Shown here in pieces: positions 14,699-54,914 of a stretch of 64,000 nt of DNA; the stretch's first letter is position 1, and each line of letters opens with the position of its first letter. The stretch comes from an uncultured bacterium (GTDB lineage: Bacteria; Krumholzibacteriota; Krumholzibacteriia; JACNKJ01): positions 46,595 through 110,594 of the forward strand of contig CAZVHI010000005.1 of assembly GCA_964627205.1 (NCBI GenBank). Reading direction: 5' to 3'. The notes beneath the pieces were generated by a model, which worked only from the letters and a program-made list of their open reading frames with translations, searched no databases and was not told the origin of the DNA. The position numbers and the translations under genes were made by a program.

Positions 14699-14836
14699 GC
14701 GATCGGCCCCCGTCCTTAGGAATCCGCATCGGGGCCCAGGGAACCCCGACAGATCCGACCTTGCCCGCGTCCCGGGCACCGGGAATATACAGGCAATCGG
14801 AGTACCATTTGCCGGGCCCGCGGCCCTTGCCGCCTC

Positions 14837-14866
14837 TTGACTTCCCACGGGACCGGACGCTATATA
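14837..14866 (+). promoter_or_regulatory. Putative sigma70 promoter for tRNA-Thr (TTGACT-18-TATATA).
   Basis: The hexamers lie 20-45 nt upstream of the tRNA 5' end. Confidence 0.45.
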
Positions 14867-14884
14867 GACCTGCTCGAAACACAC

Positions 14885-14957
<73 letters not shown>

Positions 14958-14998
14958 CCCGCCGAGTCCTCCCCTCGCGGGGAGGCTCCCGCTCCTCC

Positions 14999-15026
14999 GG
15001 CCGCTCCGTTCGGAGCGGCCTTTTCC
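14999..15026 (+). terminator. Rho-independent terminator after tRNA-Thr.
   Basis: GGCCGCTCC gttc GGAGCGGCC followed by TTTTCC. Confidence 0.6.
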
Positions 15027-15049
15027 GTGCCGTCTTTCTGGAGGTGCTC

Positions 15050-19296: not shown

Positions 19297-19394
19297 GGGA
19301 GTGGATGGGTCCTGGTGGGCCCCGAGGACTTCAAATCCTTATGCCGGGTGCTAAACCCATCCGGGGTGGGTTCGATTCCCACACATTCCCGCCA
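19297..19394 (+). tRNA. selC: tRNA-Sec (selC; anticodon UCA), 98 nt with a long variable arm, encoded CCA.
   Basis: GGGAGTGGATGGGTCCTGGTGGGCC CCGAGGACTTCAAATCCTT ATGCCGGGTGCTAAACCCATCCGG GGTGGGTTCGATTCCCACACATTCCCGCCA. The anticodon stem-loop GGACTTCAAATCC is identical to E. coli selC, and the extended acceptor and long extra arm are typical of tRNA-Sec. Confidence 0.8.
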
Positions 19395-32247: not shown

Positions 32248-34002
32248 ATGAGCAAGAGCAAGACCAGTCGCATCATCGTTGCCCTGAAGAAGCTGGCGGA
32301 GAAGAAGTCCTACCTCCTGCACGACGACATCTACGAGCAGTTCTCCGAGGAGTTCGACATTGACGCGGTAGACACCGTCTACTCGCGCCTGTCCGAGCTG
32401 GGCATCGATGTTTACGACAGCCAGGAAGAAGCGCAGGCCAAGCTCAAGGCTCAGGAGGCGCGGCAGAAGAAGCTCTCGGAGAAGATGAGCCAGGCCGCCG
32501 TACAGAGCATGCGCTACGACGACCCCGTGCGCATGTACCTGCGCGAGATGGGCAAGGTCCCGCTCCTGGACCGCGAGGGCGAAATCGCCATCGCGAAGCG
32601 AATCGAGGCGGGCAAGCATCAGGTGATCGAATCGCTCTTCAACTCGTCCCTTGCCGAGCTCTTCATCGGGGACTGGATCCAGGCGCTGAACGCGGGCGAC
32701 CTCAGCGTCGAGGACCTGATCCAGGTGGACACGGGCGGCTACCAGGAGCACCACACTCCCCAGGGGCGGGACAAGGCGGCCGTGGTGCGCTCCCTCAAGA
32801 AGATCTGCAGGCTGAGGACGGAGTTCCTTGCCTTCCACGAGAAGCAGCGCCGGGCGAGCACGGATCGGCAGAAGAAGTCGGCCACCAAGGCCCTCACGCT
32901 CCGCGAGGATCGCTGGCGCGGTCTGATGCACGGACTGAACTTCCAGCCCAAGCACGTGGACGCCCTTGTCGAGTCCGTCCGGGAACAGCACGAGGAATAC
33001 ACGGGCCTGGCTAAGCAGATCTCCCACTACGAGAAGTTCCTCGGCATGGAGTACGGCGGTCTCCGTGAGACCCTGAAGAAGATGCGGGATCGTGGGTGGA
33101 AGACGATCCAGATTCGCGGCAAGGGCAAGTGGACCTTCTCCTCCCTGGAGGATCTACGGAAGAAAGAGTACTCCCTGATCCGCAACCTGCGGGCGATGGA
33201 GAAGAGCCGGGGGATCACCCGCGAGGAGCTGCAGGGCACGGTGAACCGGGTCGAGGACGGCGAGCGCAAGGGACAGCAGGCGAAGAAGGAGATGATCGAG
33301 GCCAATGTGCGGCTGGTGATCTCGATCGCCAAGCGCTATACGAACCGCGGCCTCGAGTTCCTTGACCTCATCCAGGAGGGGAACGGCGGCCTTATGCGGG
33401 CCGTGGACAAATTCGACTACCGCAAGGGTTACAAGTTCTCCACCTACGGTACCTGGTGGATCCGCCAGGCTATCACGCGGGCGATCGCGGACCAGGCGCG
33501 AACGATCCGTGTGCCGGTCCACATGATCGAGGCGATCAACAAGGTCAGCCGGGCGAGCCGCAAGCTCATCCAGGAGTACGGGCGCGAGCCAACGCCCGAG
33601 GAAGTCGCCAAGTACCTCAACTTCCCCGTCGAAAAGGTCAAGGGCGTGATGAAGGCGAGCATGGAGCCCATCAGCCTGGACCGACCCATCGGCGAGGACG
33701 AGGACAGCAACCTCGGCGACTTCATCGAGGACCTGCACGCCGACAGCCCCGCCTCCTCGGCGGCGCACTCGATGCTAAAGGACCAGCTCGCCAAGGTGCT
33801 CTCCACGCTGACCCGTCGCGAGGAAAAGGTGATCCGCCTGCGCTTCGGCCTGGGGGACGGCACGCCGCGCACCCTGGAGGAAGTGGGCACGATCTTCCAG
33901 GTGACGCGCGAGCGCGTGCGGCAGATCGAGGCGAAGGCGATTCGCAAGCTGCAGCACCCCAGCCGGGCGCGCAAGCTCAAGGGCTACGTGGAGAATTACT
34001 GA
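32248..34002 (+). CDS. rpoD: RNA polymerase sigma factor RpoD (sigma-70).
   Basis: Regions 1.2-4.2, including [24 protein letters not shown] and the region 4 HTH. dnaG-rpoD synteny. Confidence 0.95.
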
Positions 34003-34044
34003 GCTCGCCTAGCGTCGCGTGGCCAGGCTTCGTACAGCAGTCCG

Positions 34045-35172
34045 CTAGGAGCCGTCGAAGCCGATCTTCGGGTCATAGCGGCGCTCGTCCTCATGGCAAT
34101 CGGCGCAGTCCGGCGGCGTGCCGAATCCCTGTACATGGCAGTCGGAGCAGTCGGCCTCGCGGTGCTCTTCGTCGAGCTCCACGCCTGTGGACGCGTGGCT
34201 GAACTCGGTCGGCTGCCAGTCACCCGGGTGACAGAACTGGCAGCGCGGTTCGAGCTTCATGAAGGCTCCTCGCTGGCCATGGCAGCTGCGGCAGCTGAGC
34301 CCGGCATGATAGCTCGCCAGGGGCCAGCCGGTGACGTCGTGGCTGAATAGGTCGTTCGGGTCGCGGCCGTGGCAGGTATCGCAGTACTCGTCTTCCTCCC
34401 TGTGGCATCGGAAACAGGTGTCGTGCAAGTCGGTCTCGGTGGGAGCGCCCATCGGGTGCAGCTCCTCGCCCTGCACGTGGCAGCGCTTGCAGCTCTGCTG
34501 CTGATGGCACTCGACGCAGTCCCGCTCGTAGAGCTCCGAGTGGTTCCTGTGGTGGAATGGAACCTTGTCCCCCTCCTCGTACTCGGTCCGGAAGACGATC
34601 AGCTCGATCAGCTCGATCTTCTCGTAGTGGGAGTGTTCGCAGACCTCTGACGGTATTCCCGGCACCGCCTTCTCGTGGCAGATCTCGCAGGCGGTGTCGT
34701 TGTCCCACTCCTCGTGGCAGGCGAGACAGTTCCGGTGGTAGGCGCCCTTGAGCCCCGGCTGGGCGATGTCCTCGTGGACGATCTCCGTGGGGTGGCAGCT
34801 CTTGCATTCGGGGTGCGGGTCGTTCGGGGGCGTGAAGTGGTGGCAGGTCTCGCAACCCCCGTTCAGCTGGACCATCTCGGCATGCCGCAGGTGGTTGAAA
34901 CGCACGGGGACGTAGAGCTTCTCCAGCTCGTCCATGATCACGATGCTGGGCCCCATCTCCGCTTCCAGGGCGTCCATGACCTCGTGGCGCGGGCAGATCT
35001 GCGACTTCAGGCAGGGGTTCACCGGCGACGGCCGCTCGCAGTGGTGGCACTCGTTGCAGTCGGGGGTCCTGCGAGTCGCCTCCGCTGCGACGGGTTGCAA
35101 TGCCGTGCAGAGGATCGTGACCACGAACAGTAGAAGGCCAAGCGATCTCTCGACTTCACTTCGCTTCTTCAC
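34045..35172 (-). CDS. Periplasmic multiheme c-type cytochrome with 13 CxxCH motifs.
   Basis: Signal peptide, then CNECH, CETCH, CKSCH, CLACH, CEICH, CVECH, CKRCH, CFRCH, CDTCH, CRSCH, CQFCH, CSDCH, CADCH. GTG start at 35172. Confidence 0.85.
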   Translation of the reverse strand: MKKRSEVERSLGLLLFVVTILCTALQPVAAEATRRTPDCNECHHCERPSPVNPCLKSQICPRHEVMDALEAEMGPSIVIMDELEKLYVPVRFNHLRHAEMVQLNGGCETCHHFTPPNDPHPECKSCHPTEIVHEDIAQPGLKGAYHRNCLACHEEWDNDTACEICHEKAVPGIPSEVCEHSHYEKIELIELIVFRTEYEEGDKVPFHHRNHSELYERDCVECHQQQSCKRCHVQGEELHPMGAPTETDLHDTCFRCHREEDEYCDTCHGRDPNDLFSHDVTGWPLASYHAGLSCRSCHGQRGAFMKLEPRCQFCHPGDWQPTEFSHASTGVELDEEHREADCSDCHVQGFGTPPDCADCHEDERRYDPKIGFDGS

Positions 35173-35321
35173 CGTTGTCCTCTCTTACTGCTCTTCCCCT
35201 TCTTCGCCGGAGTGGCCACCAGCGCTCTGATGAAGACGATGAAGAGCAGGAGATAGCCGATGACCAGCAGGTACTCGATGCCCTTGGTTGCGAAGATGTC
35301 CACGTACTCGAAACTTTCCAT
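35169..35321 (-). CDS. Unannotated 50-aa single-TM protein (putative small subunit of the redox complex).
   Basis: MESFEYVDIFATKGIEYLLVIGYLLLFIVFIRALVATPAKKGKSSKRGQR. Its TGA overlaps the cytochrome GTG start (GTGA), and its ATG lies 1 nt after the NrfD-like gene stop. Not in the ORF track (too short). Confidence 0.5.
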   Translation of the reverse strand: MESFEYVDIFATKGIEYLLVIGYLLLFIVFIRALVATPAKKGKSSKRGQR

Positions 35322-35322
35322 C

Positions 35323-36573
35323 TCATCCCCCCTTGCCTGTCGCCTCGTCCGCCGTCGCCCAGGCGGGCGGATCCCCGAGCACCGGCATCCGGTTCACGAC
35401 CCAGCGGAACACCCAGATCTCGGCGCAGATCACACCCAGTGTAACCTCGATCTCCATCCAGGTCGGCACGTAGCGCACGGCCGCGTCCCACTGGAAGGCG
35501 ATGACCGAGATGTTGAGCCGGTTGAGGATGATGCCGACCATCGCCAGGACCGCGGCGACGCGGATCGTGCCCACGCTACGGCTGCGCACCGCCCGGAAGA
35601 AGAGGACGCCGGGCAGGAGGACGAAGCCGATCACCTCGAGCAGGTACCAGGCTCCCCAGGCCGTTCCCAGCTGTTGCCAGTGCTGGCCGTGCACCAGGAT
35701 GAGCAGCTTCATGAAGAGGTAGACGAAGATCGCGCCGGCGCAGATCCGGCCCAGGCCGACGAGGATGTCGTCCTGGGACGCGTGCGCCCCGCGGCCGAGC
35801 CGGTGGCTGAACACCCTGTGGCTGATCGAGCCCTCGAAGATCACCATCGAGAGCCCGGCGAAGATGCTGGAGACGAAGAAGAGCACGGGGATGAACTCCG
35901 TGTACCACAGGGGATGGATCTTGCTCTTCGCCGTCAGGAAGAGCGCGCCGAGGCCCGACTGGTGCAGCGTGGAGAGCGTGATCCCGAAAATCACCGCGCC
36001 GATCGTCAGCACGGCGAAGATCCGCCGCACGCGCCGCCAGCCGAGCCACTCGGCCACGGCGGGGAAGAACTCGATCAGCTCGGCGAGCATGTAGAGCAGG
36101 AAGTGCCAGGCCACGAGGAAGAGCACCGAACTGACGCCGAAGGAGTTACCGATGATCGGATTGACGACGTTCCAGGGTCTGCCCAGGTCGAGCAATAGCG
36201 CGCCCGCGTAGAACACGTAGGCGAGGAAGCCGTTCAGGACCGTCGCCCGTACGATGGGGTGATACTGCTTGGCGCCGAGGATGTAGACGAGGAAGGTGAG
36301 CACGTAGGCACCGCCGGCGAAGGCGACGCCGGTGACCACGTCGAAGCCGATCCAGATGCCCCAGGGATAGTCCTGGGACAGGTTGGTGATCGCCCCGAGC
36401 CCCTTGGCGAAGCGGATCACAAGCAGGAACACAGCCAGCAGGATGATCGGAATCGAGATCAGGTTGAAGGGCGTCAGCAGGCTGCCCTTGGGCTTCAGCT
36501 CGCGCGCGAGGAAGCCGGCGAGCTCCCGAGGCCGGACGGCTTCTTGCGTCGGCGAACCCAAGGGCCGGCTCAT
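35323..36573 (-). CDS. NrfD/PsrC/HybB-family integral membrane quinone-interacting subunit.
   Basis: 416 aa with about 8-10 TM helices. NrfD-like topology. The start overlaps the FeS gene stop. Confidence 0.8.
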   Translation of the reverse strand: MSRPLGSPTQEAVRPRELAGFLARELKPKGSLLTPFNLISIPIILLAVFLLVIRFAKGLGAITNLSQDYPWGIWIGFDVVTGVAFAGGAYVLTFLVYILGAKQYHPIVRATVLNGFLAYVFYAGALLLDLGRPWNVVNPIIGNSFGVSSVLFLVAWHFLLYMLAELIEFFPAVAEWLGWRRVRRIFAVLTIGAVIFGITLSTLHQSGLGALFLTAKSKIHPLWYTEFIPVLFFVSSIFAGLSMVIFEGSISHRVFSHRLGRGAHASQDDILVGLGRICAGAIFVYLFMKLLILVHGQHWQQLGTAWGAWYLLEVIGFVLLPGVLFFRAVRSRSVGTIRVAAVLAMVGIILNRLNISVIAFQWDAAVRYVPTWMEIEVTLGVICAEIWVFRWVVNRMPVLGDPPAWATADEATGKGG

Positions 36574-37439
36574 GGCGCCTCCTCGCCCAAGGTCTCGCGC
36601 TCAGCGCGTCGCGTCCGACTCGCCCCGTAGAGGAAGGCCGGCCAGAGAAGCAGGATGATGGGCACGGAGTAGAGGAAATCCTGCGTGTGCTCCGGGATCG
36701 GTGTCGTCCCGAGATCGGTCCGGAAGCCGATCTGCTTGAAGGGGACCGCCGAGAGGTAGAGCCACGAGGTTCCACCCACCTCGCACTCGCCGTAGATGTC
36801 GTGAACGTACTTCTCCGGGTTGCCGTAGATCCTGCTCCGCGCGATCTCGACGAGCTCCCGGCGCGTGCCGAAGGCGAGCGCCTCGACGGGGCAGCCCTCG
36901 ACGCACGCGGGAATCTGCCCCTGCTGCAAGCGCTCCGCACAGAAGACGCACTTCTGGATCTTGGGGTTGGCGCTGTGGTACTCGAACTTGGGCACGTCGA
37001 AGGGGCAGGAGATCATGCAGTAGCGGCAGCCCATGCACTTGTCTCCGCGCCAGATGACCGGGCCCCGCCGCGTCTTGTGCATCGCCTGGACCAGGCAGGC
37101 CGACGCGCAACCGGGCTGGTTGCAGTGCATGCACTGCCGCTTGACGAAGAACTCACCCTTTTCCGTCTCGAAGCGGTTGACCACGGTCCACTGGGACGGG
37201 CTCGTCCGCCGTGGCTGAGCGAAGACGCTCTTGTCCTTGATGTCGGGCACGGGGAGGGCGTGGGTTTCCGCGCAGGCCTCCTCGCACTTGCGGCAGCCGT
37301 TGCAGCGCACGGTGTCGACGAGCACGGACAGGAACTCCGTGTCGTCTCCTCGCGCGGGAGCCCGGCCGGAGGCGCGTCCCGGCAGGAGACCCGTCCCCGC
37401 TGCGCCGCCCACCAGTTTGAGGAACTGCCTTCTCTCCAT
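36570..37439 (-). CDS. Tat-exported 4x[4Fe-4S] ferredoxin-type subunit (HybA/NrfC/PsrB/HmcB-like) with a C-terminal TM anchor.
   Basis: Twin-arginine signal MERRQFLKLVGGAAGTG. Four Cys clusters (CNGCRKCEEAC...CP, CMHCNQPGCASAC, CMGCRYCMISCP, CVFCAERL...CVEGCP). C-terminal hydrophobic helix. Confidence 0.85.
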   Translation of the reverse strand: MERRQFLKLVGGAAGTGLLPGRASGRAPARGDDTEFLSVLVDTVRCNGCRKCEEACAETHALPVPDIKDKSVFAQPRRTSPSQWTVVNRFETEKGEFFVKRQCMHCNQPGCASACLVQAMHKTRRGPVIWRGDKCMGCRYCMISCPFDVPKFEYHSANPKIQKCVFCAERLQQGQIPACVEGCPVEALAFGTRRELVEIARSRIYGNPEKYVHDIYGECEVGGTSWLYLSAVPFKQIGFRTDLGTTPIPEHTQDFLYSVPIILLLWPAFLYGASRTRRAERETLGEEAP

Positions 37440-37650
37440 GGCTCTGGAATCTCCTCGTATGGAATGGGACGCGGAAGTTCCCGGATATCATAGTTCAGGG
37501 CCTTTTTAACTTCAATATGAATTCGGGATTTCTTTCTCTAGGATACCTGGATACTTGGGACTGCGCCTCAAACGGGGATCGGAGCAGCATTCGGGGGGGG
37601 GGCAGATCCCCTTGACTCGCAAGCTCTTCGGGCCTAGCCTCGGCCACAGC

Positions 37651-37724
37651 GGGCCCATAGCTCAGTTGGTCAGAGCGGGCGACTCATAATCGTTCGGTCG
37701 CAGGTTCGAGTCCTGCTGGGCCCA
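37651..37724 (+). tRNA. tRNA-Met (anticodon CAT; elongator Met or lysidine-modified Ile2).
   Basis: Acceptor GGGCCCA/TGGGCCC, anticodon loop CTCATAA, T-arm GCAGG TTCGAGT CCTGC. Confidence 0.8.
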
Positions 37725-37765
37725 CCGCCGCGCTCGCACGGAGATCCCAACCCGTCCGGAAGGCC

Positions 37766-38470
37766 ATGCACGAAGACCATCCCATCCTGCAGCTCTACCA
37801 GGAAGACCGTCGCGCCCTCTTCTGCGAGCGGCGACTCGAGGAGATCCCCCGGGCCCTAGACGCCCTGCGCAAGGAGGCCCTGGTGCGCAAGGAGGGCCAG
37901 GATCGCCGCCTCCAGGAGCTGGGCGAGCTGGAGGAGTCCATGCGTCACCTGGAACGAGACGCCCAGTACCAGCGGGAGAAGCTGAAGGGCCGGCAGGATC
38001 AGCAGATGAAAGTCACGACCCTGGATGGTATGCGCGCCGGCGAGCACGAGATCGAGGGGCTGCAGAAGAGCATCGCGGGCCTGGAGGAGCGCGTCTTCGA
38101 GAAGATGGAATCCCAGGAGATCCTCCAGCGGGAGATCCAGCTCCGAGAGTCGGCGGAGATCGACGAGACGGAGAGGCTGCGCCGCGAAGCCGAGGAGCTG
38201 GAGGTGGAGCTGCGCGAGTGCCAGCACGAGCGCGAGAAGGCCGGGCTGCAGAGGGAGCGCCTTCTCGGGGAGATGGACGAGGCCTTGGCCCGTCGCTACC
38301 AACGCATCTTTCAGAACCAGAGCTACGCCACACTGGCTCCCCTGCGGGACGGCGCCTGCAGCGGCTGCGGCGAGAAGCTGCCGCCCCAGCAAGCCCTGGA
38401 GGTCCGCAAAGCCGGTCGCGTCGAGACATGCCAGGGCTGCGGTCGCCTGGTGATGTGGGTCGAGCAGTGA
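37766..38470 (+). CDS. Coiled-coil + C-terminal C4 zinc-ribbon protein (COG1579/DUF164-like).
   Basis: Long heptad-rich middle and a C-terminal CSGCGEKL...CQGCGRLV zinc ribbon. Confidence 0.7.
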   Translation: MHEDHPILQLYQEDRRALFCERRLEEIPRALDALRKEALVRKEGQDRRLQELGELEESMRHLERDAQYQREKLKGRQDQQMKVTTLDGMRAGEHEIEGLQKSIAGLEERVFEKMESQEILQREIQLRESAEIDETERLRREAEELEVELRECQHEREKAGLQRERLLGEMDEALARRYQRIFQNQSYATLAPLRDGACSGCGEKLPPQQALEVRKAGRVETCQGCGRLVMWVEQ

Positions 38471-39136: not shown

Positions 39137-39486
39137 GGAAGCGGACCGGACGGCCGCGGGCCCTCGGGTCCGAGGAAAGTCCGGGCTCCACAGGGCAGGG
39201 TGCTGGGTAACTCCCAGGGGAAGCGATTCCACGGAAAGTGCCACAGAAAATATACCGCCGGCTCCGGCCGGTAAGGGTGAAAAGGCGAGGTAAGAGCTCA
39301 CCGGGCGCCCGGTGACGGGCGTCGCACGGCAAACCCCACCCGGAGCAAGACCAAGCAGGGAAGACGAGGTGGCCCGCCTCGACCATTCCCGGGTAGGTTG
39401 CTCGAGGCGGCCGGTAACGGTCGCCCTAGATAAATGGCCGTCGCTCCCCGCGGGGAGGACAGAACCCGGCTTACAGGTCCGCTTCC
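39137..39486 (+). ncRNA. rnpB: RNase P RNA (rnpB, bacterial type A).
   Basis: P1 GGAAGCGGACC...GGTCCGCTTCC. P4 halves GAGGAAAGTCCGGGCTCC and ACAGAACCCGGCTTA. GGTAAGGGTGAAAAGGCGAGGTAAGAGCTCACC. A T-run follows. Several track ORFs here are artefacts. Confidence 0.85.
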
Positions 39487-39526
39487 TTTTCTTTTCCGCA
39501 GCGCAACCCCTGCCCACGGAGGACGC

Positions 39527-41305
39527 TTGGATCCCGCCCCCGCCCCCGCCCCTTCCTTCCACCTTCGCGAAGCGGCGCCTCCCGAGGAGAAGAGAAGGCT
39601 CGCGGCGGAGCTGAGCCTGCCGCCGGCCGTGGCCGACCTGGCCTGGCAGCGCGGCATCCGCGGTATGGCGGACTGGGAGGAGTGGACGTCGGTCGACGTC
39701 ACGGAGCAACACGATCCCCACCTCCTGCCCGACATGGACCTGGCCGTCGACCGCCTGCTCTTCGCGCGGGAGCACGGCCAGAAGGTGCTCGTCCACGGCG
39801 ACTACGACGTAGACGGCCTCACCGGCGCCGCGCTGCTCTACCGCGCCCTGCGCGGCCTCGGCCTAGACGCGCAGGCCTTCGTGCCGCACCGCGAGCGCGA
39901 CGGCTACGGTCTCTCGCGGCGCGCGCTCGAACACTCCCGCGAGCGCGGCTGCTCCCTGGTGGTGACGGTCGACTGCGGCTCCTCGGACGGCGAGCTGATC
40001 GAGGAGATGGCACTGGGCGGCCTGGACACCATCGTCACCGACCATCATCTCGCCACGGAGCGGCCGGAGGCGCTGGCCTTCGTGAGCCCGATGCGCAGCG
40101 GCAGCGAATACCCCTTCGAACACCTGGCCGGCAGCGCCATCGCCTACAAGCTGGCCCTCGCGCTGCACGAAGCGCTGGGCCGGCCCCAGGCGCCGGAGAC
40201 CTGGCTGGACTATGTCGCGCTGGGGACCGTGGCCGACGTGATGCCGCTCAAGGGCGAGAACCGCCTCCTGGTCCGGGCCGGCCTGCGGGAGATGAGCCGG
40301 CGGCTCACCGCCCGCAGGGGTTCGCGCGAGGATGTGCACCCCGCGTGGCGCGCGCTGGCCCGCGTGGCGAAGCTGCCGGCGGGCGAGCTCAGCGCCCAGG
40401 ACCTCGCCTTCCGCCTCGCACCGCGGCTCAACGCCCCCGGCCGCCTCGGCAGCGCCCGTCCGTCCCTCGACCTGCTCTGCGCCACGGACGCGGACGAGGT
40501 GGATTCGCTGGCCCGGCGCATCGAGGAGATCAACGAGCGCCGGCGCAAGCTCGAGGGCGTAATCACAGAGGACGCTCGCGAGGCGGCGCGCAGGCGCCTG
40601 GAGCGCGCCGAGCGCGAGAACAGGCACCTCGGCATCCTCGTGCTGGCCGGCGAGGGCTGGCAGCCGGGGGTGCTGGGGATCTCCGCCGCGCGGCTCGTCG
40701 AGGAGTTCGGGCTGCCGGTGCTCCTCATGGGGCTCGAGGCGGACGGCTCGGGCCGGGGCTCGGGCCGGGGCCAGGAGGGGCAGGACATGAAGAAGCTCCT
40801 GGACGGCGCCTGCGCCCACCTCGAGCGCCACGGGGGCCACCGCCGCGCCGTGGGCTTCAACCTGAAGGCCGGCCACTGGGAGAGTTTCTCCCGAGAGCTG
40901 GAGGACTGCCTGCCGGCCCCCGGCGGCGACGGCTCGTGCCGCCTCCTGATGGACGTCGCCGTGAAGGGCTCCGAGCTGAACCGCGACTTCCTCGACGGCC
41001 TCGAGCAGCTCGGCCCCTTCGGCGAGGGCAATCCCGAGCCGCTCCTGCTCCTGCGGCGAGCGGTGCCCACGGACGCGCGCGTGCTCAAGGGCTGTCACCT
41101 GCGCATCGAGTTCCTCGCAGACGATGGCCTGCGCCGCCGAGCCATCGTCTTCGGTCGCGCGGAGCAGCTGCAGGGCCGCGTCGAGCCGGGGGTCGAGACG
41201 GACCTCTGCCTGCGCGTCGCCCGCGACACCTATCAGCGGCGGCCCGGCGAGCACGGCGTCGCCCTGCACCTGGTGGACCTCGGACCGGCGGAGGCGGCGA
41301 GTTGA
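39527..41305 (+). CDS. recJ: Single-stranded-DNA-specific exonuclease RecJ.
   Basis: DHH motifs VHGDYDVDGLTG, DCG and TDHH, plus a DHHA1 domain. The track ORF (39434..) starts inside rnpB. Suggested TTG at 39527, preceded by GGAGGA; an alternative is ATG 39665. Confidence 0.8.
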   Translation: MDPAPAPAPSFHLREAAPPEEKRRLAAELSLPPAVADLAWQRGIRGMADWEEWTSVDVTEQHDPHLLPDMDLAVDRLLFAREHGQKVLVHGDYDVDGLTGAALLYRALRGLGLDAQAFVPHRERDGYGLSRRALEHSRERGCSLVVTVDCGSSDGELIEEMALGGLDTIVTDHHLATERPEALAFVSPMRSGSEYPFEHLAGSAIAYKLALALHEALGRPQAPETWLDYVALGTVADVMPLKGENRLLVRAGLREMSRRLTARRGSREDVHPAWRALARVAKLPAGELSAQDLAFRLAPRLNAPGRLGSARPSLDLLCATDADEVDSLARRIEEINERRRKLEGVITEDAREAARRRLERAERENRHLGILVLAGEGWQPGVLGISAARLVEEFGLPVLLMGLEADGSGRGSGRGQEGQDMKKLLDGACAHLERHGGHRRAVGFNLKAGHWESFSRELEDCLPAPGGDGSCRLLMDVAVKGSELNRDFLDGLEQLGPFGEGNPEPLLLLRRAVPTDARVLKGCHLRIEFLADDGLRRRAIVFGRAEQLQGRVEPGVETDLCLRVARDTYQRRPGEHGVALHLVDLGPAEAAS

Positions 41306-43494
41306 GCGATAAGCTGCCGCAGGTGGATAAGCAGGACGAAGGAGCCCGGCGGGAGCTGTCGGGCCTGCTCGCCAAGGCGCGCCGTCTGTCCCCCCAGATG
41401 CCGATCGACATCATCGAGCGCGCGTTTTGGTCGGCCCGTGAGGCGCACAAGGATCAGAAGCGCCGCTCGGGCGAGCCATACTTCTTGCACGTGCTGGCCG
41501 TGGCCAAGACCTGCGCCGAGATGAACCTCGGCTCCAACGCCGTTGCCGCTGCGCTGCTGCACGACACCGTCGAGGACACGGCCATCAGCGTGGAGATGAT
41601 CCGCCGTGAGTTCAATCCCACGGTGGCGACGCTCGTCGACGGCGTCAGCAAGATCAGCGCGCTTCGTTTCGCGAGCGAGGAGAAGGCCCAGGCGGAGAAC
41701 TTCCGAAAGCTGCTCCTGCACATGAGCAAGGACATCCGCATCCTGCTCATCAAGCTCGCCGACCGCCTGCACAACATGTCCACGCTCGGGTTTCTCGCGC
41801 CGGAGAAACGGCGGCGCATCGCGCGCGAGACCATGGACATCTACGCGCCCCTGGCCAACCGCCTCGGCATCGGTCGTGTCAAGTGGCAGCTCGAGGACCT
41901 CTGCTTCAAGTACCTCGAGTCGGAGCAGTACGAGCGCATTGCAAGCAGCATGGGCATGCGGCGGGAGTCGCGCGACGAGTTCATCGCGGAGATGCGTGAC
42001 CTGGTCCAGCACAGCATGGACGAGAACAACATCGAGTGCGCGGTGCAGGGGCGGGCCAAGCACCTCTACAGCGCCTACCGCAAGATGATCGCCCAGCACC
42101 TGAGCCCCGAGGAGATCTTCGATCTGCTGGCCTTCCGGATCGTCACGGAGTCCGTGGCCGACTGCTACCACGCGCTGGGCGTGATCCACACGCTCTTCAA
42201 GCCCCTGCCGCAGCGCTTCAAGGACTACATCGCCACGCCGAAGCGCAATGGCTACCGCAGCCTGCACACGGCCGTGATCTCCGACGACGGCCGCGTCTTC
42301 GAGGTGCAGATCCGCACCCACGAGATGCACCAGATCGCCGAGTTCGGCATCGCCGCGCACTGGCGCTACAAGGAGGGGGGCGGCGAGCGGGACGACAAGG
42401 AGAGCGCCCGTGACCTGGACTTCCTGCGCACCTTCCTCGACGAGCTGAAGGAGGGCGAGTGGGGGGAGGACCCGTCCGAGTTCATGGCCCACCTCAAGAT
42501 CAACCTCTTCCAGGAGGGGATCTTCGTCTTCACGCCGCGGGGCGACCTGCACAACCTGCCTGCGGGCGCAACGGCGCTGGACTTCGCCTACGCCATCCAC
42601 ACTGCGGTGGGCGACCGCTGCGTCGGCGCCCGTGTGGACGGCAGGATCGTGCCCCTGCGCCGTGAGCTGAAGAGCGGCGAGGTAGTGGAGATCCTCACGC
42701 GCAACGACGCGCGCCCCAGTCGCGACTGGCTGAGCTTCGTCAAGACGAGCAAGGCCATGAGCCGCATCAAGCGGCGCCTCCGGCAGAGCGAACTGGAGCA
42801 ATCGCTGCGCCTTGGCCGCGAACTGCTCGAGCGGGAGTTCAAGAAGCAGCACAAGTCCTATCCCGAGATGGAGGAGTTGAGCCAGGCCGCAGAAGCGCTG
42901 GGCGTGGAGGACGGGGTGCGGATCGTGGAGGGGGTCGGGCGCGGCAACTTCTCCGCCGCCCAGGTCTTCAACCGCATCCACCCGCCCGAGGAGAAGGCGC
43001 CGGAGCTGATCCCCAGCGAGGAGGCCGTCACGCGTATCAGCCGCGACGCGGTGCGGGGCGTGCGCGTGGAAGGCCATGGCAACATGATGATCCGCTTCGC
43101 GGGCTGCTGCTCGCCCGTGCCGGGCGACGCGATCGTCGGTATCGTAACGCGCGGCCGCGGGATCAGCATCCACCGCAACGACTGCATCAACGTGGTGGAC
43201 AACCCGGTGGTCGAGGACCGCATGGTCGCGGTGGAGTGGGACGTGGGGGATCAGGAGAAGTTCCTCGTCGGGCTCTTAGTCAGCGCGGATGACCGGCCGA
43301 ACCTGCTTGTGGACGTCACCGGCAAGATCTCCAAGACCGGCACGAACATCACGAGCGGCAGCTTCGAGCGCGACGAGAAGGAGCTGCTCACGCGCTTCCA
43401 CTTCACGCTCGAGGTTCGGGACACGGCCCAGCTCGAAGAGGTGATGCGCAGCATCAAGTCGGTAAAGGGGGTGCAGGATGTCTCGCGGCGCTGA
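41302..43494 (+). CDS. relA: Bifunctional (p)ppGpp synthetase/hydrolase (RelA/SpoT homolog).
   Basis: HD domain (HDTVEDT), synthetase domain (RSLHTAVISDDGRVFEVQIRT), TGS and ACT domains. TTG at 41302 with GGAGG 7 nt upstream; alternative ATG 41398. Track ORF 39682..43494 is a read-through frame. Confidence 0.85.
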   Translation: MSDKLPQVDKQDEGARRELSGLLAKARRLSPQMPIDIIERAFWSAREAHKDQKRRSGEPYFLHVLAVAKTCAEMNLGSNAVAAALLHDTVEDTAISVEMIRREFNPTVATLVDGVSKISALRFASEEKAQAENFRKLLLHMSKDIRILLIKLADRLHNMSTLGFLAPEKRRRIARETMDIYAPLANRLGIGRVKWQLEDLCFKYLESEQYERIASSMGMRRESRDEFIAEMRDLVQHSMDENNIECAVQGRAKHLYSAYRKMIAQHLSPEEIFDLLAFRIVTESVADCYHALGVIHTLFKPLPQRFKDYIATPKRNGYRSLHTAVISDDGRVFEVQIRTHEMHQIAEFGIAAHWRYKEGGGERDDKESARDLDFLRTFLDELKEGEWGEDPSEFMAHLKINLFQEGIFVFTPRGDLHNLPAGATALDFAYAIHTAVGDRCVGARVDGRIVPLRRELKSGEVVEILTRNDARPSRDWLSFVKTSKAMSRIKRRLRQSELEQSLRLGRELLEREFKKQHKSYPEMEELSQAAEALGVEDGVRIVEGVGRGNFSAAQVFNRIHPPEEKAPELIPSEEAVTRISRDAVRGVRVEGHGNMMIRFAGCCSPVPGDAIVGIVTRGRGISIHRNDCINVVDNPVVEDRMVAVEWDVGDQEKFLVGLLVSADDRPNLLVDVTGKISKTGTNITSGSFERDEKELLTRFHFTLEVRDTAQLEEVMRSIKSVKGVQDVSRR

Positions 43495-45742: not shown

Positions 45743-46164
45743 TGAATCACTTCAACAGAACGAGATGGGTGTGGTCATGGAGAGTGAAAGCAGAGCGAAT
45801 AAAGCGATCAGCAGGCGCAGACCGAGGAGCGGCTGCGGGCGGGGCTTGGGCATGATCTGTCCTCAAACATTTGAGCAGCATGGAATCCCGACACTGGATC
45901 GGAACGATCGTAGCGGTAACGACGAAACCGAGGTTTCCTTTCCGACATTCTCGTTACTCATATGACTCACGATCTCGCGCAATGATACCACACTGCTGCG
46001 CTTTCCCCATTGGATAGCCAGCTCGATCTTCGCCCGTGTTCGCCAACAGGGTCAATTGCGCTCCGCTCCGTGGGTGGCGTTGACTCCCGCCGGGGCCTGT
46101 GATAGTTTTCCGCCTCAGCGTCAAACCGTTGGAAAACCTGGACCTTCCGCGGAACAAGGAAGTC

Positions 46165-49029
46165 ATGCCGCCCACCGCGCTCCGCGCCGTCCCCTGGACG
46201 GGCCGCCTCCTGTGTCTGATGATCTGCTGCGGTCTCCTCGCATGCGCCGCCGTGCAGGCCGCGGCGCAGAGCTCGGGCGGAACCCTCACGGGCGTGATGA
46301 TCGACAAGGCCACGGGCGACCCGCTGGCCTATGGCAACGTCGTCCTGCTCGGTACCGACTATGGCGGCATGAGCCTGGACGACGGCACCTTCCTCGTCAC
46401 CAACATCCCCCCCGGCACCTACACGATCCGCGCCAGCTACATGGGCTACAAGATGGCCGAGAAGGCGCTGGTGCGCCTGCGCAACGGCACCGTCCTCGAG
46501 CTGGAGTTCGAGCTGGAGCCCACGGTGATCGAGTCGGAGACGATCACCGTCTATGGCGAGAAGCCCCTGGTGGACGTCACCGAGGCTTCGAGCATCAAAA
46601 GCCTGGCCGCGAGCGACATCGCCATGATGCCCGTGGAGACGGTGGAGGAGGTTGTGATCGCGCAGCCGGGCGTCGTGCAGCAGGACGACGAGATCCACAT
46701 CCGCGGCGGCCGCTCCGACGAGACCCTCGTGCTCGTCGACGGCGTGCCGATGAAGGACGCCCTGGCCGGCACGAGCAGCGCCAAGGGTATCGACTCGAAG
46801 TCCGTCGCCCAGATGGACCTGATCACCGGCGGCTGGCGTGCCGAGTTCGGCAACGCCATGGCGGGCGTCATCAACGTGACCCTCAAGGAAGGCGGCGAGA
46901 CCTTTAGCGGCTTCACCGAGTACGGCATCGACCACTTGCCCTTCGTCGGCACGGACTGGGAGCACTACTACACCGACACCTACAAATTCCAGTTCGGCGG
47001 GCCGATGCCCGGCAGCGGCACCTGGTTCCCCGGCGAGCGGCTGAGCTTCTTCAGCAACTTCTCCGGTCAGATCATGAATACGCGCTTCCCGAGCATCCGC
47101 AACATGCCGGGGGGCGAGGACCACGTGCAGATCCGCTACGAGGATAGCTTCCTGGGCATCCCCATCATCTGGAAGAGCCCCGACATCGCCCCGCGGCAGA
47201 ACAACAACTGGAACGTCATGGCGAAGGTGGCCTGGAAGCTGAACAAGGACCACAAGTTCACCCTGACCCTGACCAAGTACCTCGCCTTCGACCAGGGCTT
47301 CGACCGCCACGACATCAGCGACCTCACGCGGCAGAGCAACCGCTACCCCTACCGGTGGTCGCACTATCTCAACCACTACAGCGCCTTCCTCGAGGACCGC
47401 AACACGGCCGTGCTCAAGTACCGGCAGAACGTGTCGGGCAGCATGTTCCACGAGCTGCAGATCTCGCGCTTCTTCGTACGCATCCGGCAGGACTCGCAGA
47501 AAGAGGCCGTCGATGAGCTGCGTGACTACATCGCGCAGTACGCGCCCAGCGCACTCGACTGGCCCGACGCCGCCCAGGGCGAGTTCTGGGACTTCCATCC
47601 CTACTTCTATTTGAACGGGGACTACAACCAGTACCGGGACCGCTACACGGAGCGCTACGCGTTCAAGTGGGACATCACCAAGAAGTGGTACCCGCACCAC
47701 AAGGGGAAAGCCGGCTTCACGCTCGGCTACGAGAGCATCCAGAACATCGAGATCCGCGATCCCTGGATCCAGCGTGAAGACGGGCTTGGCCGCAAGGACA
47801 TCTTCCGTTCCTTTCCGACCACCGGGCACATCTACCTGCAGGACGACATCGAATACCAGGGCTTCGTTTCGAACGTCGGCCTGCGCACCGACATCTGGTT
47901 CCCGGGACAGTTGGCCGAAGGTGCCGCCCAGGCCGCCATCGACGGCACGGCCGGCGACCTCTTCACCGCCGAAGTGGGCCATGAGTACTTCCGAAGCACC
48001 AACAGCCTCTTCGGCAACCGCTACAAGTACACGATCAGCCCTCGCGTGGCGATCAGCTACCCGGTCACCGACAGGGACAACCTGTTCTTCAACTACGGGC
48101 ACTTCAGCCAGTGGCCCACCTACTACTACGTCTACACGCACGTGGCCAGCGGCGTGGAGGACCTCTTCGGCAACCTGGGCAACATCAATCTCGATCCCCA
48201 GATCACGATCCAGTACGAGCTGGGCGCGCGGCACAGCTTCAGCTACAACGTGGCCGGCGACCTGACGGTGTTCGTCCGCGACATCTTCAACTACCCGACG
48301 AGCGAGCGCTACACGGTGCAGTACTACGACCCGGTGGAGGGGAGCAAGGAGGCGACCTACTTCCTCTACCGCAACAGCGACTACTCGCGCAGCCGCGGCA
48401 TCGAGCTTTCTATACGCAAGCGGCGCGGGCGCTACTTCTCCGGGTCGGTCAACTACACCTTCTCCATCGCCACGGGCAAGAGCAGCGACCCGAACGCCCA
48501 GCGCGAGCTCTATGTCGGCGGCGCGACGGGCGAGGTCGAGCTGCAGGAGGGCTTCCTGTGGTGGAACCGGCCCCACCGCCTCACCGCCACCTGCGACTTC
48601 CGCGTACGCGACATCCGGGGCCCGGAGATCCTCGGCGTCCGGCTGCCCGGGCACTGGGGCTTCAACGCCTACTACAGCCTCTCCAGTGGCCGCGCCTACA
48701 CGCCGGAGGACACCACGGGCCAGCCCATCGGCGAGGACTACTCCCGCAACGGCCCCATCGAGCAGAACCTCAACATGAAGCTGCAGAAGTGGATCATCTG
48801 GGGCGACTACCGTATCGACCTCACCCTGCAGGGCTGGAACATCTTCAACTGGAGCCAGCCCCGGCACATCGACCCCATCACGGGTGATCACTACAAGGAG
48901 GGCTACGGCAGCTACGCAGCCCAGCTCACCGATCCCGACTCCCGGCTCTCGCGCTACCTCAGCCTCGCCGACCCCTCGCGCAACGGCAGCCCGCGCCGCT
49001 TCAAGCTCAGCCTGGGGGTGAACTTCTGA
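46165..49029 (+). CDS. TonB-dependent outer-membrane receptor, SusC/RagA-like (N-terminal CarbopepD_reg domain + plug + 22-strand barrel).
   Basis: Signal peptide, carboxypeptidase-regulatory-like domain (LTGVMIDKATGDPLAYGNVVLLGT...YTIRASYMGY), plug motif IHIRGGRSDETLVLVDGVP, and a C-terminal aromatic (F). The track ORF starts at 46099; ATG at 46165 follows RBS AAGGAAG. Confidence 0.85.
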   Translation: MPPTALRAVPWTGRLLCLMICCGLLACAAVQAAAQSSGGTLTGVMIDKATGDPLAYGNVVLLGTDYGGMSLDDGTFLVTNIPPGTYTIRASYMGYKMAEKALVRLRNGTVLELEFELEPTVIESETITVYGEKPLVDVTEASSIKSLAASDIAMMPVETVEEVVIAQPGVVQQDDEIHIRGGRSDETLVLVDGVPMKDALAGTSSAKGIDSKSVAQMDLITGGWRAEFGNAMAGVINVTLKEGGETFSGFTEYGIDHLPFVGTDWEHYYTDTYKFQFGGPMPGSGTWFPGERLSFFSNFSGQIMNTRFPSIRNMPGGEDHVQIRYEDSFLGIPIIWKSPDIAPRQNNNWNVMAKVAWKLNKDHKFTLTLTKYLAFDQGFDRHDISDLTRQSNRYPYRWSHYLNHYSAFLEDRNTAVLKYRQNVSGSMFHELQISRFFVRIRQDSQKEAVDELRDYIAQYAPSALDWPDAAQGEFWDFHPYFYLNGDYNQYRDRYTERYAFKWDITKKWYPHHKGKAGFTLGYESIQNIEIRDPWIQREDGLGRKDIFRSFPTTGHIYLQDDIEYQGFVSNVGLRTDIWFPGQLAEGAAQAAIDGTAGDLFTAEVGHEYFRSTNSLFGNRYKYTISPRVAISYPVTDRDNLFFNYGHFSQWPTYYYVYTHVASGVEDLFGNLGNINLDPQITIQYELGARHSFSYNVAGDLTVFVRDIFNYPTSERYTVQYYDPVEGSKEATYFLYRNSDYSRSRGIELSIRKRRGRYFSGSVNYTFSIATGKSSDPNAQRELYVGGATGEVELQEGFLWWNRPHRLTATCDFRVRDIRGPEILGVRLPGHWGFNAYYSLSSGRAYTPEDTTGQPIGEDYSRNGPIEQNLNMKLQKWIIWGDYRIDLTLQGWNIFNWSQPRHIDPITGDHYKEGYGSYAAQLTDPDSRLSRYLSLADPSRNGSPRRFKLSLGVNF

Positions 49030-50027
49030 TGCCGCCCCTACGCCGCATCCTCCCGCTCCTCGCCCTGCTCCTCCTGCTGGCCGGGCCCCTGCGCGCCGCC
49101 CAGGAGCTGGGCGCGCTGCGTGTGGCGACCAGCAGCGGTACATTCTTGAAAATCGGCATCGGCCCGCGGGCGGCGGCCATGGGCGGCGCCTGGTCGGCGA
49201 TCGCCGCCGACGCCACGGCCGCCTGGTACAATCCCGCCGGCCTGGGGCAGCTGCCCAACCGCCAGCTCTTCGCGGGCTACATCGCCTGGCCGGCGGGCAT
49301 CCACTATGGCAACTTCATCGTGGCCATGCCGATGGCGAGCCTGCGGGGCAACGTCGCCCTTCAGTTCGGCAACCTGTCGACGACACTCGACGAGACCGAC
49401 GAGTACCACCCCTACGGCACGGGGCGTCGCTTCGTCTATTCGGACTGGGTGCTGGGCGCGTCCTACGCGCGCTCGATGACCGACCAGCTCCTCTTGGGCC
49501 TGACCGTCAAGTACGTGCGCGAGGACCTCGGCTCGACGGTGGGGGGTCCCGTGATCAGCACCTGGGTGGTGGACGCGGGCACGCTCTACAGTATGGGCTT
49601 CCGAAACCTGCGCATCGGCATGAGCATCCAGAACTTCGGCCCCGACTTCAAGCCCGTGGGGAGCTACTGGAACCACGTCGAGGAGAAGGAGGAGGACTAC
49701 GAGGGCTTCCCGCCGCCGTCCGCCTTCAAGCTGGGGGTGGCCTTCGAGCCGTGGAAGAGCTACCCCTGGATCCTCACCCAGACCCTCGAGATGAACCATC
49801 TCGCCGACAACCAGGAGACGCTCGCCACGGGCCTCGAGCTGTCCTACATGGGCGGGCTCTTCGCCTTGCGCAGCGGCTACAACTTCATGGCCGACGAGAT
49901 GGGACTCGCGGCCGGCTTCGGCGCGACTTTCATGATGGGCTCGGCGCTGGCCGGGCTGGACTACTCCTACACGGACGGCAACTCGCTGGGGGGCATCCAT
50001 CGCTGGGCCCTCCGGCTGGACTTCTAG
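49029..50027 (+). CDS. FadL/PorV-like outer-membrane beta-barrel protein (possible T9SS-associated shuttle/PorP-PorV family).
   Basis: Signal peptide, then AAMGGAWSAIAADATAAWYNPAGLG (FadL/PorV-type N-terminal motif). C-terminal ...WALRLDF (aromatic terminus). Confidence 0.5.
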   Translation: MPPLRRILPLLALLLLLAGPLRAAQELGALRVATSSGTFLKIGIGPRAAAMGGAWSAIAADATAAWYNPAGLGQLPNRQLFAGYIAWPAGIHYGNFIVAMPMASLRGNVALQFGNLSTTLDETDEYHPYGTGRRFVYSDWVLGASYARSMTDQLLLGLTVKYVREDLGSTVGGPVISTWVVDAGTLYSMGFRNLRIGMSIQNFGPDFKPVGSYWNHVEEKEEDYEGFPPPSAFKLGVAFEPWKSYPWILTQTLEMNHLADNQETLATGLELSYMGGLFALRSGYNFMADEMGLAAGFGATFMMGSALAGLDYSYTDGNSLGGIHRWALRLDF

Positions 50028-50034
50028 GGGGGAG

Positions 50035-50973
50035 ATGCGCCGCGCGGTATGGCATCTACTGCTCTTCACCCTGCTGGCGGCGGCCTGCGGCGTGAAGCCC
50101 GAGCTGCCGAGCCAGATTCCCAGCACGGAGGTGCTGGGCGACGAGAGCTACACGCTGCCCTACTACTGGGTGATCGGCGGCGTGACGGACATGCTCGTGC
50201 ACCGCGGCACGCGCATCTTCTCGATCATCCAGGACGCCGACAGCGTGAGCATCTATCCCACCTACGCGCGCGGCGACACGCTGCCGAGCCACAAGCGCCT
50301 GTTCACGGGGCTCACTGCTCCGCGCCTGCTGGCCGACGGTAGCGACCACAAGTTCCGCCTCTGGGTCTACGACGACGGCGATGCCACGCTGAAGGGCTTC
50401 GACGGCGGCGAGTTCCTCGACACGCTGACGGTGGAGATCGCCCACAGCGATCCCGCCTGGCAGGACGTGGTGGCGGTCGCCGCGGACAACGAGGCGCGCG
50501 TCTTCGTGGCGGACCGGGCCGCCAACAAGATCTATCGCTACCGCGTGAGCGATCCGCCCGCGCCCGAGCTGGAGGCCGACGGCGAGATCCAGTGGGTATC
50601 TCAGCAGGCGGGGGCCACGGTGCGCGACCTGGCCTATTCCGCGGGCTGGCTCGTCCTGCTGGACGACGGGCTCGGCACGATCCAGCTTCTCGATCCGGCG
50701 AGCGAGCTCGATCCGGTCTTCGAGTACATGGACGGCGTGCTCGCCCAGCCGGAGGCCGTCACCGCGAACGAGGCGCACATCTTCGTGATGGACCGGGCCG
50801 ACACCACGATCTGGGAGATCGGTTGGGATCTCGAACCGGACGGCGCCCGCCGCGTGAACGAAGGCGCGAACCAGGTGCTGCGGAATCCCACGGCCTTCAC
50901 GGTGAACGAGAGCAAGGTCTACGTGGCTGACATCGAGCAGGGAAGGGTCTTCGACTATGAGAAGCGCCAGTAG
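50035..50973 (+). CDS. Lipoprotein with NHL/beta-propeller-like repeats.
   Basis: Lipobox LLAAAC. Repeated RVFVADRAANKIYRY, HIFVMDRADTTIWEI and KVYVADIEQGRVFDY blades. Confidence 0.55.
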   Translation: MRRAVWHLLLFTLLAAACGVKPELPSQIPSTEVLGDESYTLPYYWVIGGVTDMLVHRGTRIFSIIQDADSVSIYPTYARGDTLPSHKRLFTGLTAPRLLADGSDHKFRLWVYDDGDATLKGFDGGEFLDTLTVEIAHSDPAWQDVVAVAADNEARVFVADRAANKIYRYRVSDPPAPELEADGEIQWVSQQAGATVRDLAYSAGWLVLLDDGLGTIQLLDPASELDPVFEYMDGVLAQPEAVTANEAHIFVMDRADTTIWEIGWDLEPDGARRVNEGANQVLRNPTAFTVNESKVYVADIEQGRVFDYEKRQ

Positions 50974-53254: not shown

Positions 53255-53283
53255 GCGCGCCCGGGAGGAAAGGGATTCGCAAC

Positions 53284-54840: not shown

Positions 54841-54914
54841 ATGAACGTGCCCGCGGGACCGCCCAGGGCCCACGGCATCAATCGGTCTTAATAGTTAGCC
54901 TTCAGGGGGCAGTG

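Follow-up and report, generated by a model that had tools for sequence, protein, structure and literature searches.

A candidate Nhc-like electron-transfer module built around a 13-haem cytochrome c in an uncultured Krumholzibacteriota bacterium

An uncultured bacterium assigned to the Krumholzibacteriota carries, on a 64-kb stretch of contig CAZVHI010000005.1 (assembly GCA_964627205.1, positions 46,595 to 110,594 of the forward strand; the whole stretch is called the window here and numbered from its first nucleotide), four minus-strand genes for an iron-sulfur (FeS) protein, an NrfD-type membrane protein, a 50-aa peptide and a cytochrome c with 13 haem-binding motifs. Our reading, to which we assign a probability of roughly 0.7, is that these genes encode a periplasm-facing, quinone-coupled electron-transfer complex with the architecture of the Nhc complex of Desulfovibrio. 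It draws on the gene set, cofactor motifs, targeting signals, subunit homology, conserved linkage and natural gene fusions observed in the window and in related loci. The four open reading frames (ORFs) and the candidate promoter in front of them are as follows.

36570-37439, minus strand: FeS subunit gene, ORF of 289 aa
35323-36573, minus strand: NrfD subunit gene, ORF of 416 aa
35169-35321, minus strand: small-peptide gene, ORF of 50 aa
34045-35172, minus strand: cytochrome gene, ORF of 375 aa with a GTG start
37487..37515, minus strand: candidate sigma-70-like promoter (TTGAAG-17-TATGAT), some 48 nt ahead of the FeS start codon

Gene layout and subunits

All four ORFs, which an original prediction made from the DNA letters had placed at 34045-37439, were found at those coordinates. 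GC content at third codon positions was 0.88-0.93 in the three larger ORFs, which marks them as coding frames; the 50-aa ORF fell below the length cut-off of that scan. GC content of the window is about 68%. Two of the three stop/start overlaps that had been predicted were present: the FeS stop and NrfD start overlap as ATGA, and the peptide stop and cytochrome start as GTGA. The third, between NrfD and the peptide, turned out to be a single-base spacer (TGA-g-ATG). Apart from the promoter candidate, neither strand of 33900-37800 held a promoter-like site; the call was made by consensus match for a host of the Fibrobacteres-Chlorobi-Bacteroidetes (FCB) group, whose promoters may differ from that consensus. 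No promoter-like or terminator-like site was detected on the minus strand inside the four genes. Given the two overlaps, the one-nucleotide spacer and the single upstream promoter-like site, the four genes are predicted to be one operon, read as a single transcription unit.

The cytochrome contained exactly 13 CxxCH motifs, at residues 39, 107, 123, 149, 162, 219, 228, 253, 264, 294, 311, 342 and 356. This count on the translated protein is the one originally proposed and is far beyond chance. All 13 motifs were invariant in an alignment of 30 homologues, and 103 of 107 full-length homologues carried exactly 13. The protein starts with a signal peptide, continues with a lone haem 1 in a Cys-rich motif and ends in three four-haem domains. 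Pfam matches to Cytochrom_CIII (2.7e-12) and Cytochrome_C7 place it in the c3 superfamily, and a profile built from the 30 homologues found its best solved relatives in the PDB to be the 16-haem HmcA (E = 1.7e-27) and the nine-haem cytochrome c (E = 2.2e-22). The stretch with haems 2-5 (residues 58-167) matches the c3-like domain at the C-terminus of HmcA, and the two share the motif PGLK(G/A)AYHxQCxxCH. Twelve histidines outside the motifs were invariant or nearly so and divided 4+4+4 over the three four-haem domains (H94, H97, H112, H146; H207, H208, H211, H250; H278, H289, H326, H337); haems 2-13 can therefore be bis-His ligated. A lipoprotein form of the cytochrome was considered and rejected, as Cys22 of the signal peptide is not conserved. 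The gene was likewise rejected as a pseudogene: its ORF is intact, all motifs are conserved and an identical protein occurs in several metagenomes.

The FeS protein begins with MERRQFLK, a twin-arginine translocation (Tat) motif that gave a weak Pfam TAT_signal match. Its 16 cysteines lie in four ferredoxin-type motifs (residues 46-56, 103-115, 135-145 and 164-183), an arrangement that fits four predicted [4Fe-4S] clusters, and its single hydrophobic helix is a C-terminal tail anchor at residues 255-273. Pfam assigned the protein to Fer4_11 (1.7e-20). The best NCBIfam model was HmcB (344 bits, cut-off 420), followed by HybA (221 bits); DsrO scored 106 bits (cut-off 200) and QrcC 55 bits, with TtrB and NrfC likewise far below HmcB. 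The best solved relative was FdnH (1kqf_B, 2.5e-35). A Tat-exported, HybA-like protein with four [4Fe-4S] clusters and a C-terminal transmembrane helix had been expected, and the Tat motif, the cysteines and the helix bear this out, with HmcB ahead of HybA as the best model. A cryptic molybdopterin domain was rejected: the 289 residues hold Fer4-type domains only and no extra domain.

The NrfD subunit, predicted as an NrfD/HybB-like polytopic membrane protein, matched Pfam NrfD (1.1e-11) and showed about 10 hydrophobic helices by hydropathy. Here too the Hmc model led: HmcC gave 403 bits (cut-off 550), HybB 263 bits and QrcD 68 bits. There was no NCBIfam match to DsrP, and a sequence search of the PDB with this subunit returned nothing at E <= 0.001. 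The FeS-NrfD pair has the features of the quinone modules of the NrfD/PsrC superfamily: Pfam NrfD and Fer4_11 matches, a Tat signal and four motifs with 16 cysteines on the FeS protein, and about 10 helices in NrfD. The scores of all subunits lie below NCBI's equivalog cut-offs.

The 50-aa peptide, proposed as a single-helix membrane peptide, proved to have its own ATG one base past the NrfD stop, preceded by AAGGGGGGA, a purine-rich ribosome-binding stretch. It has an acidic N-terminus, one helix at residues 18-36 and a strongly basic C-terminus, so that the positive-inside rule would place the N-terminus outside and the C-terminus inside. A homologous ORF of 42-55 aa followed every HmcC-like NrfD of the module elsewhere, with 42-58% identity and the motif IFATKGIEYL. 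The NCBIfam HmcD model matched 8 of 15 aligned members of this peptide family (best E = 8e-11); the match of the window peptide itself was weak (12.6 bits, cut-off 34, E = 0.1), and Pfam returned only a sub-threshold DUF4006 match for it. The link to HmcD was thus made through NCBIfam and intermediate peptides, the Pfam HmcD family PF28260 being known from precomputed annotations. On this homology we regard the peptide as a divergent subunit of the HmcD/NhcD type.

Conservation, membrane-core variants and genomic context

Relatives of the cytochrome are widespread. A protein collection clustered at 90% identity contained 479 of them, and most of the 120 listed were about 340-400 aa long, with some shorter fragments. 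At the 50% cluster level there were 424 representatives at E <= 1e-30, many of them giant repetitive cytochromes. In a scan with one genome per species, at least 549 species-level genomes encoded a cytochrome relative, mainly in Acidobacteriota and FCB-group phyla. Our statements on linkage rest on 80 retrieved loci, all from metagenome-assembled genomes (MAGs) and reduced to 76 after removal of redundancy. Their hosts were Acidobacteriota (including Polarisedimenticola), Eisenbacteria, Krumholzibacteriia, Gemmatimonadota, Latescibacterota, 'Fibrobacteraceae', Omnitrophota, KSB1, Calditrichaceae, Ignavibacteria, Zixibacteria, Phycisphaerae and some Desulfobacterota-type bins.

The order FeS, NrfD, (peptide), cytochrome was kept in nearly all 80 loci across many phyla, and no catalytic or cytoplasmic subunit was conserved in them. 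Natural fusions join NrfD to the full 13-haem cytochrome (P0370, 792 aa; P0410, 803 aa) and FeS to NrfD (locus L002, 7891-9990, in a Hinthialibacter MAG); they support a physical association of the subunits. Contigs from at least three Joint Genome Institute (JGI) metagenomes carry NrfD, peptide and cytochrome proteins identical to these, flanked by the same genes, so the locus is neither an assembly artefact nor a pseudogene. In 25 of the 80 loci, covering all three membrane-core variants described below, the module adjoins a gene for a CbcL-like protein, in which a large multihaem cytochrome c is joined to a cytochrome b561 (Ni_hydr_CYTB) domain; examples are L015 7416-10094 (minus), L017 524-3436 (minus) and L079 7107-9587 (plus), and the likeness to CbcL is one of architecture. 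This recurrent neighbour, which does not occur in the present window, places the module in a periplasmic multihaem network.

Two further observations concern related loci. Longer cytochrome relatives of 527-579 aa were seen (P0369, P0376 and P0390), the first two with an extra c7-type domain. A gene for an ArsR/HTH_20-type regulator of about 115-150 aa stands directly before the FeS gene in many genomes with the flavour A core defined below (L053-L061, L032), including Polarisedimenticola, and is absent from the window.

When the 76 non-redundant loci were sorted by their membrane core, three flavours were distinguished, with identities given relative to the window NrfD.

Flavour A, 13 loci: NrfD 65-78% identical; best NCBIfam model HmcC; peptide always present, motif IFATKGIEYL
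Flavour C, 10 loci: NrfD 42-51% identical; not scored with NCBIfam; peptide in 5 of the 7 standard-order loci, motif LTKGQEYL, more clearly HmcD-like
Flavour B, 53 loci: NrfD 31-38% identical; best NCBIfam model HybB; no peptide, and often less than 80 nt between NrfD and cytochrome genes

The window has a flavour A core. Its cytochrome was 51-60% identical to the cytochromes of flavour B loci, compared to 43-48% for most flavour A ones, and in a neighbour-joining tree calculated without bootstrap it nested, together with those of L015 and L032, inside the B-associated clade. This grouping of a B-type cytochrome with an A-type core suggests that cores and cytochromes have been exchanged between modules and that the window holds what looks like a mixed combination. 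One cytochrome family occurs with different NrfD cores, and one core occurs with different partners: respiratory modules of this kind evolve by shuffling.

The NrfD subunit has far more relatives than the cytochrome (more than 7765, the top ones 68-81% identical). Four loci reached through the top NrfD matches contained a different conserved cluster, with membrane-anchored GcvH-like proteins and no cytochrome in the operon, and in a metagenome scan of NrfD relatives this second cluster accounted for 58 of 66 classifiable loci, the 13-haem cytochrome for only 2. The gene order in the cluster starts with a GcvH-like protein that has an N-terminal helix; the FeS and NrfD genes come next, then a gene in which an HmcD-like helix is fused to a GcvH-like domain, and one for a further GcvH-like protein, rich in cysteine. 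Genes for a histidine kinase, a sigma-54 response regulator and an M54 peptidase follow. It was found at L009 (8379-12818), L093, L095, L096 and 58 of L097-L176, and the homologous core in the window is 35169-36573. Its NrfD is 63-75% identical to that of the window, and its GcvH-like fusion proteins have an N-terminal anchor with 65% identity to the 50-aa peptide. The usual lipoyl-lysine position of GcvH-like proteins is not conserved in the cluster. A literature search for GcvH together with NrfD found no description of it, and it may represent an undescribed system.

Within the window the operon is an island among housekeeping genes. Genes for MutS2, DnaG and RpoD form the convergent downstream flank, and tRNA-Met, a Zn-ribbon protein, RNase H, RecJ and RelA/SpoT the upstream flank; the rest of the window encodes UvrA, GlmS, LepA, DnaJ, a TonB-dependent receptor, ribosomal protein S2 and similar genes. 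Among the window ORFs that were screened with Pfam, those of both operon flanks included, there was no hydrogenase, molybdoenzyme or reductase, in line with the predicted absence of a molybdopterin-type or other catalytic subunit. A six-frame CxxCH scan of the 64 kb detected only one motif outside the cytochrome, in the zinc finger of DnaG, and thus no second multihaem ORF; no partner gene was found among the ORFs screened. An FCB-group host had been guessed, and this agrees with the window RpoD, which shares 82% identity with the RpoD of a Candidatus Krumholzibacteriota MAG and about 56% with Latescibacterota. That the lineage was unusual for such a module, as the same guess implied, stands only in part: the host does belong to the FCB group, and yet the module occurs in the at least 549 species genomes counted above, and NhcC-type subunits had already been reported in Acidobacteria, Bacteroidetes and Chlorobi (PMC8076601). 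Further features of the window are listed here.

37651-37726, plus strand: tRNA-Met, in the 326-nt gap between the FeS gene start and the divergent Zn-ribbon gene
19297-19394, plus strand: tRNA for selenocysteine (tRNA-SeC), anticodon tca
46099-49029, plus strand: SusC-like TonB-dependent receptor
49029-50027, 50035-50973, 50957-53254 and 53251-54840, plus strand: four ORFs without a Pfam match, following the SusC-like receptor

The tRNA-Met gene sits just upstream of the promoter-like site of the operon. From the tRNA-SeC, the organism probably makes selenoproteins. After the four unmatched ORFs (region 46099-56789, plus strand) comes a gene for a 650-aa protein; Pfam matched it only at the C-terminus, to FlgD_ig, which may be a secretion sorting domain. 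Two further ORFs, 5636-6988 (plus) and 13322-15139 (minus), were also without any Pfam match. The mechanically called 1270-aa ORF at 39682-43494 (plus; region 39434-43494) is not one gene: RecJ (39434-41305), in another frame, overlaps its N-terminal part, and RelA/SpoT domains start at about residue 580.

Proposed mechanism and alternative explanations

NrfD-family complexes are established quinone-interacting and possibly proton-conducting modules (PMC8076601, PMC6303296). From the evidence above we infer that the four proteins would form a complex with a quinone site; the direction in which electrons flow and any energy coupling are likewise inferred. Assembly on the periplasmic side is consistent with the Tat motif and tail anchor of the FeS protein and with the signal peptide of the cytochrome. 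In the proposed mechanism, the Sec-exported 13-haem cytochrome would act as a low-potential haem wire that swaps electrons with periplasmic or extracellular partners. It would give electrons to, or receive them from, the tail-anchored FeS subunit, which would rest on the cofactor-less NrfD subunit, where menaquinol would be oxidised or menaquinone reduced. Protons might be taken up or released through NrfD channels, and the 50-aa peptide would pack on NrfD as a structural fourth subunit. The chemistry is reversible. Quinol oxidation, with respiratory electrons passed to the periplasm, appears the more likely direction, for two reasons: sulfate reduction is not known from the hosts, and the module often adjoins a CbcL-like gene.

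Several observations weigh against this reading. No outer-membrane conduit, reductase or hydrogenase partner is encoded in the 64-kb window. Since the scores of all subunits fall short of the equivalog cut-offs, function is not simply transferable from the named systems. Haem 1 (C39xxCH) is without a conserved distal His and lies beside three conserved Cys. The AlphaFold2 model of the cytochrome, made from the 30-sequence alignment, reached a mean predicted local distance difference test (pLDDT) of 58 and a predicted template modelling score (pTM) of 0.39, too poor to judge haem packing or ligand geometry. Desulfovibrio Nhc has been proposed to reduce quinone, opposite to the direction favoured here (PMC8076601). 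Finally, GcvH-like proteins, not cytochromes, are the usual partners of the nearest NrfD relatives, so the core may behave in ways that the Nhc analogy misses.

The direction of flow is where the strongest competing explanation differs. With the same architecture, the cytochrome could collect electrons from periplasmic donors and reduce menaquinone, possibly electrogenically; hydrogenase or formate dehydrogenase acting through small cytochromes, Fe(II) and reduced extracellular shuttles have been considered as donors. We judge electron uptake possible, though clearly the less likely of the two directions. Cytochrome c3-type bis-histidine haems are generally low-potential, which counts in its favour, as does the HybB-like NrfD present in 53 of the 76 loci, whose E. 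coli namesake reduces quinone. Precedents from the literature point the same way: Nhc appears as a TpIc3:quinone oxidoreductase in PMC8076601, and Qrc of sulfate reducers, which rests on the same FeS-NrfD pair, reduces quinone electrogenically (PMC6303296). The iron-oxidation marker cyc2 has also been reported in Krumholzibacteria MAGs (PMC7914226). However, neither a hydrogenase, a formate dehydrogenase nor a small cytochrome c3 was present in the window, and none was conserved beside the module. Geobacter CbcL is a quinol oxidase. The frequency of CbcL-like neighbours also speaks against electron uptake, CbcL having been placed in quinol-dependent pathways (PMC13591261).

Two further explanations assign the proteins another task altogether. 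Haem 1 may do more than relay electrons: it could form an active site with Cys ligation, Cys assistance or some other special feature, like those of DsrJ, TsdA or MccA, and this would make the four (or three) genes a self-contained quinone-linked oxidoreductase for sulfur or another small substrate. The twelve conserved histidines account for haems 2-13 and leave none for haem 1, and the motif CxxCHxC-x8-C-x3-6-CxR around it (residues 39-62) was found in 101 of the 107 full-length homologues and is absent from HmcA. Three homologues without both C45 and C54 all keep C60; this joint loss suggests a C45-C54 disulfide and a free C60, which might ligate haem 1. Cysteine is not the only candidate sixth ligand: the invariant Met100 could serve instead, and the cysteines could equally be structural disulfides or contacts to the FeS subunit. 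The only match to a Cys-ligated haem was a weak one to DsrJ (E = 0.0019) at residues 246-269, far from haem 1. A catalytic cytochrome is improbable in our estimate; if it were true, it would mean an undescribed quinone-coupled oxidoreductase in Acidobacteriota and FCB-group bacteria. Still harder to sustain is the notion that FeS, NrfD and peptide are a generic anchor for an enzyme encoded elsewhere, in the manner of HybA/HybB, with the cytochrome a mere accessory. HybA and HybB were the second-best models, and the same core occurs with GcvH-like partners in most of the classifiable metagenome loci. Against this stand the translational coupling and invariable adjacency of the cytochrome, its fusion to NrfD in some organisms, and the 80 loci, in which no hydrogenase or other enzyme was linked.

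The quinone-coupled complex facing the periplasm remains our preferred reading, and its interest lies in its hosts. How the quinone pool is linked to the periplasm or the outside is largely unknown in uncultured Acidobacteriota and FCB bacteria (Krumholzibacteriota, Gemmatimonadota, Latescibacterota, Ignavibacteria and others). These bacteria are without CymA, ImcH and QrcABCD as named entities, and the 13-haem module is a strong candidate for that link. In public records its parts are annotated as no more than 'cytochrome c3 family protein' and 'Ni/Fe-hydrogenase cytochrome b subunit'. Calling it Nhc-like would improve the metabolic reconstruction of sediment and subsurface MAGs and define a target for heterologous expression. 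The haem-1 site and the GcvH-type sister cluster are the more intriguing leads.

Comparison with known systems

A literature search for 13-haem or tridecahaem cytochromes and for Hmc- or Nhc-like complexes outside sulfate reducers found nothing that describes the module; the Deferribacter HybAB papers were set aside, as they concern true hydrogenases. Among the closest known systems is NhcABCD of Desulfovibrio desulfuricans, which likewise combines a multihaem cytochrome of the c3 superfamily, an FeS protein carrying [4Fe-4S] clusters, four in number, an NrfD-type protein of 10 helices and a small membrane subunit (PMC8076601). Neither has cytoplasmic subunits, and the four-gene set is complete here, with no further subunit in the flanks. 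In the nine-haem cytochrome, it is the C-terminal domain that matches the c3-like domain of haems 2-5. The original prediction had singled out the gene order and the tridecahaem content as differences, and both stand: the order is B-C-D-A here and A-B-C-D in Nhc, and there are 13 haems instead of 9, the NCBIfam 9HemeCytC model giving 31 bits (cut-off 640). In addition, the shared domain is N-proximal here and C-terminal in the nine-haem cytochrome, only one c3-like domain aligns well, a lone extra haem with a Cys-rich motif is present, and the host is a member of the Krumholzibacteriota and not a sulfate reducer.

HmcABCDEF of Desulfovibrio vulgaris supplies the top curated models for three subunits (HmcB 344/420 bits, HmcC 403/550, HmcD 12.6/34) and, in HmcA, the nearest solved cytochrome. 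It differs in having 16 haems instead of 13 (HmcA model 45.9 bits, cut-off 400) and in HmcE, a cytochrome b, and HmcF, a cytoplasmic HdrD-like FeS protein. Both are absent from the operon and its flanks and are not conserved in the 80 loci; therefore there is no route for electrons across the membrane. The Hmc/Nhc-type reading originally put forward thus holds for the best subunit models and for the closest solved cytochromes, HmcA and the nine-haem protein. Its transmembrane part does not, with HmcE and HmcF missing and all scores below cut-off. By its predicted subunits the module is Nhc-like in architecture, and is neither Hmc or Nhc proper nor a transmembrane electron conduit.

Other systems share parts of this design. 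HybA/HybB of E. coli hydrogenase 2 also pairs a Tat-exported, tail-anchored four-cluster FeS protein with a cofactor-less 10-helix NrfD-type quinone subunit and provides the second-best models (221 and 263 bits, below cut-offs); the present module has no hydrogenase subunits, a multihaem cytochrome in place of the enzyme and an extra HmcD-like peptide. In QrcABCD and alternative complex III, too, an FeS-NrfD pair occurs together with a periplasmic multihaem cytochrome c; the molybdopterin-like subunit or domain that both possess (QrcB, ActB) is absent here (QrcD 68 bits, QrcC 55 bits). DsrMKJOP differs in DsrM and DsrK, which are missing, in a DsrO score of only 106/200 bits and in the lack of a DsrP match. 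The earlier exclusion of alternative complex III, Psr/Ttr and Nrf was sound, as the FeS subunit is a plain 289-aa ferredoxin-type protein and no catalytic subunit turned up among the ORFs screened on the two flanks. Geobacter Cbc-type complexes (e.g. Cbc4/CbcSTU), compared by published description only, unite a c-type cytochrome with an FeS protein and a membrane subunit to link the menaquinol pool with the periplasm; their clusters vary in gene content and haem number, and their roles are still unknown (PMC13591261, PMC11434368). Set beside these systems, the module is a widespread, conserved and previously unnamed variant of the Hmc/Nhc type, with a mechanism that would hardly surprise a specialist in bioenergetics.

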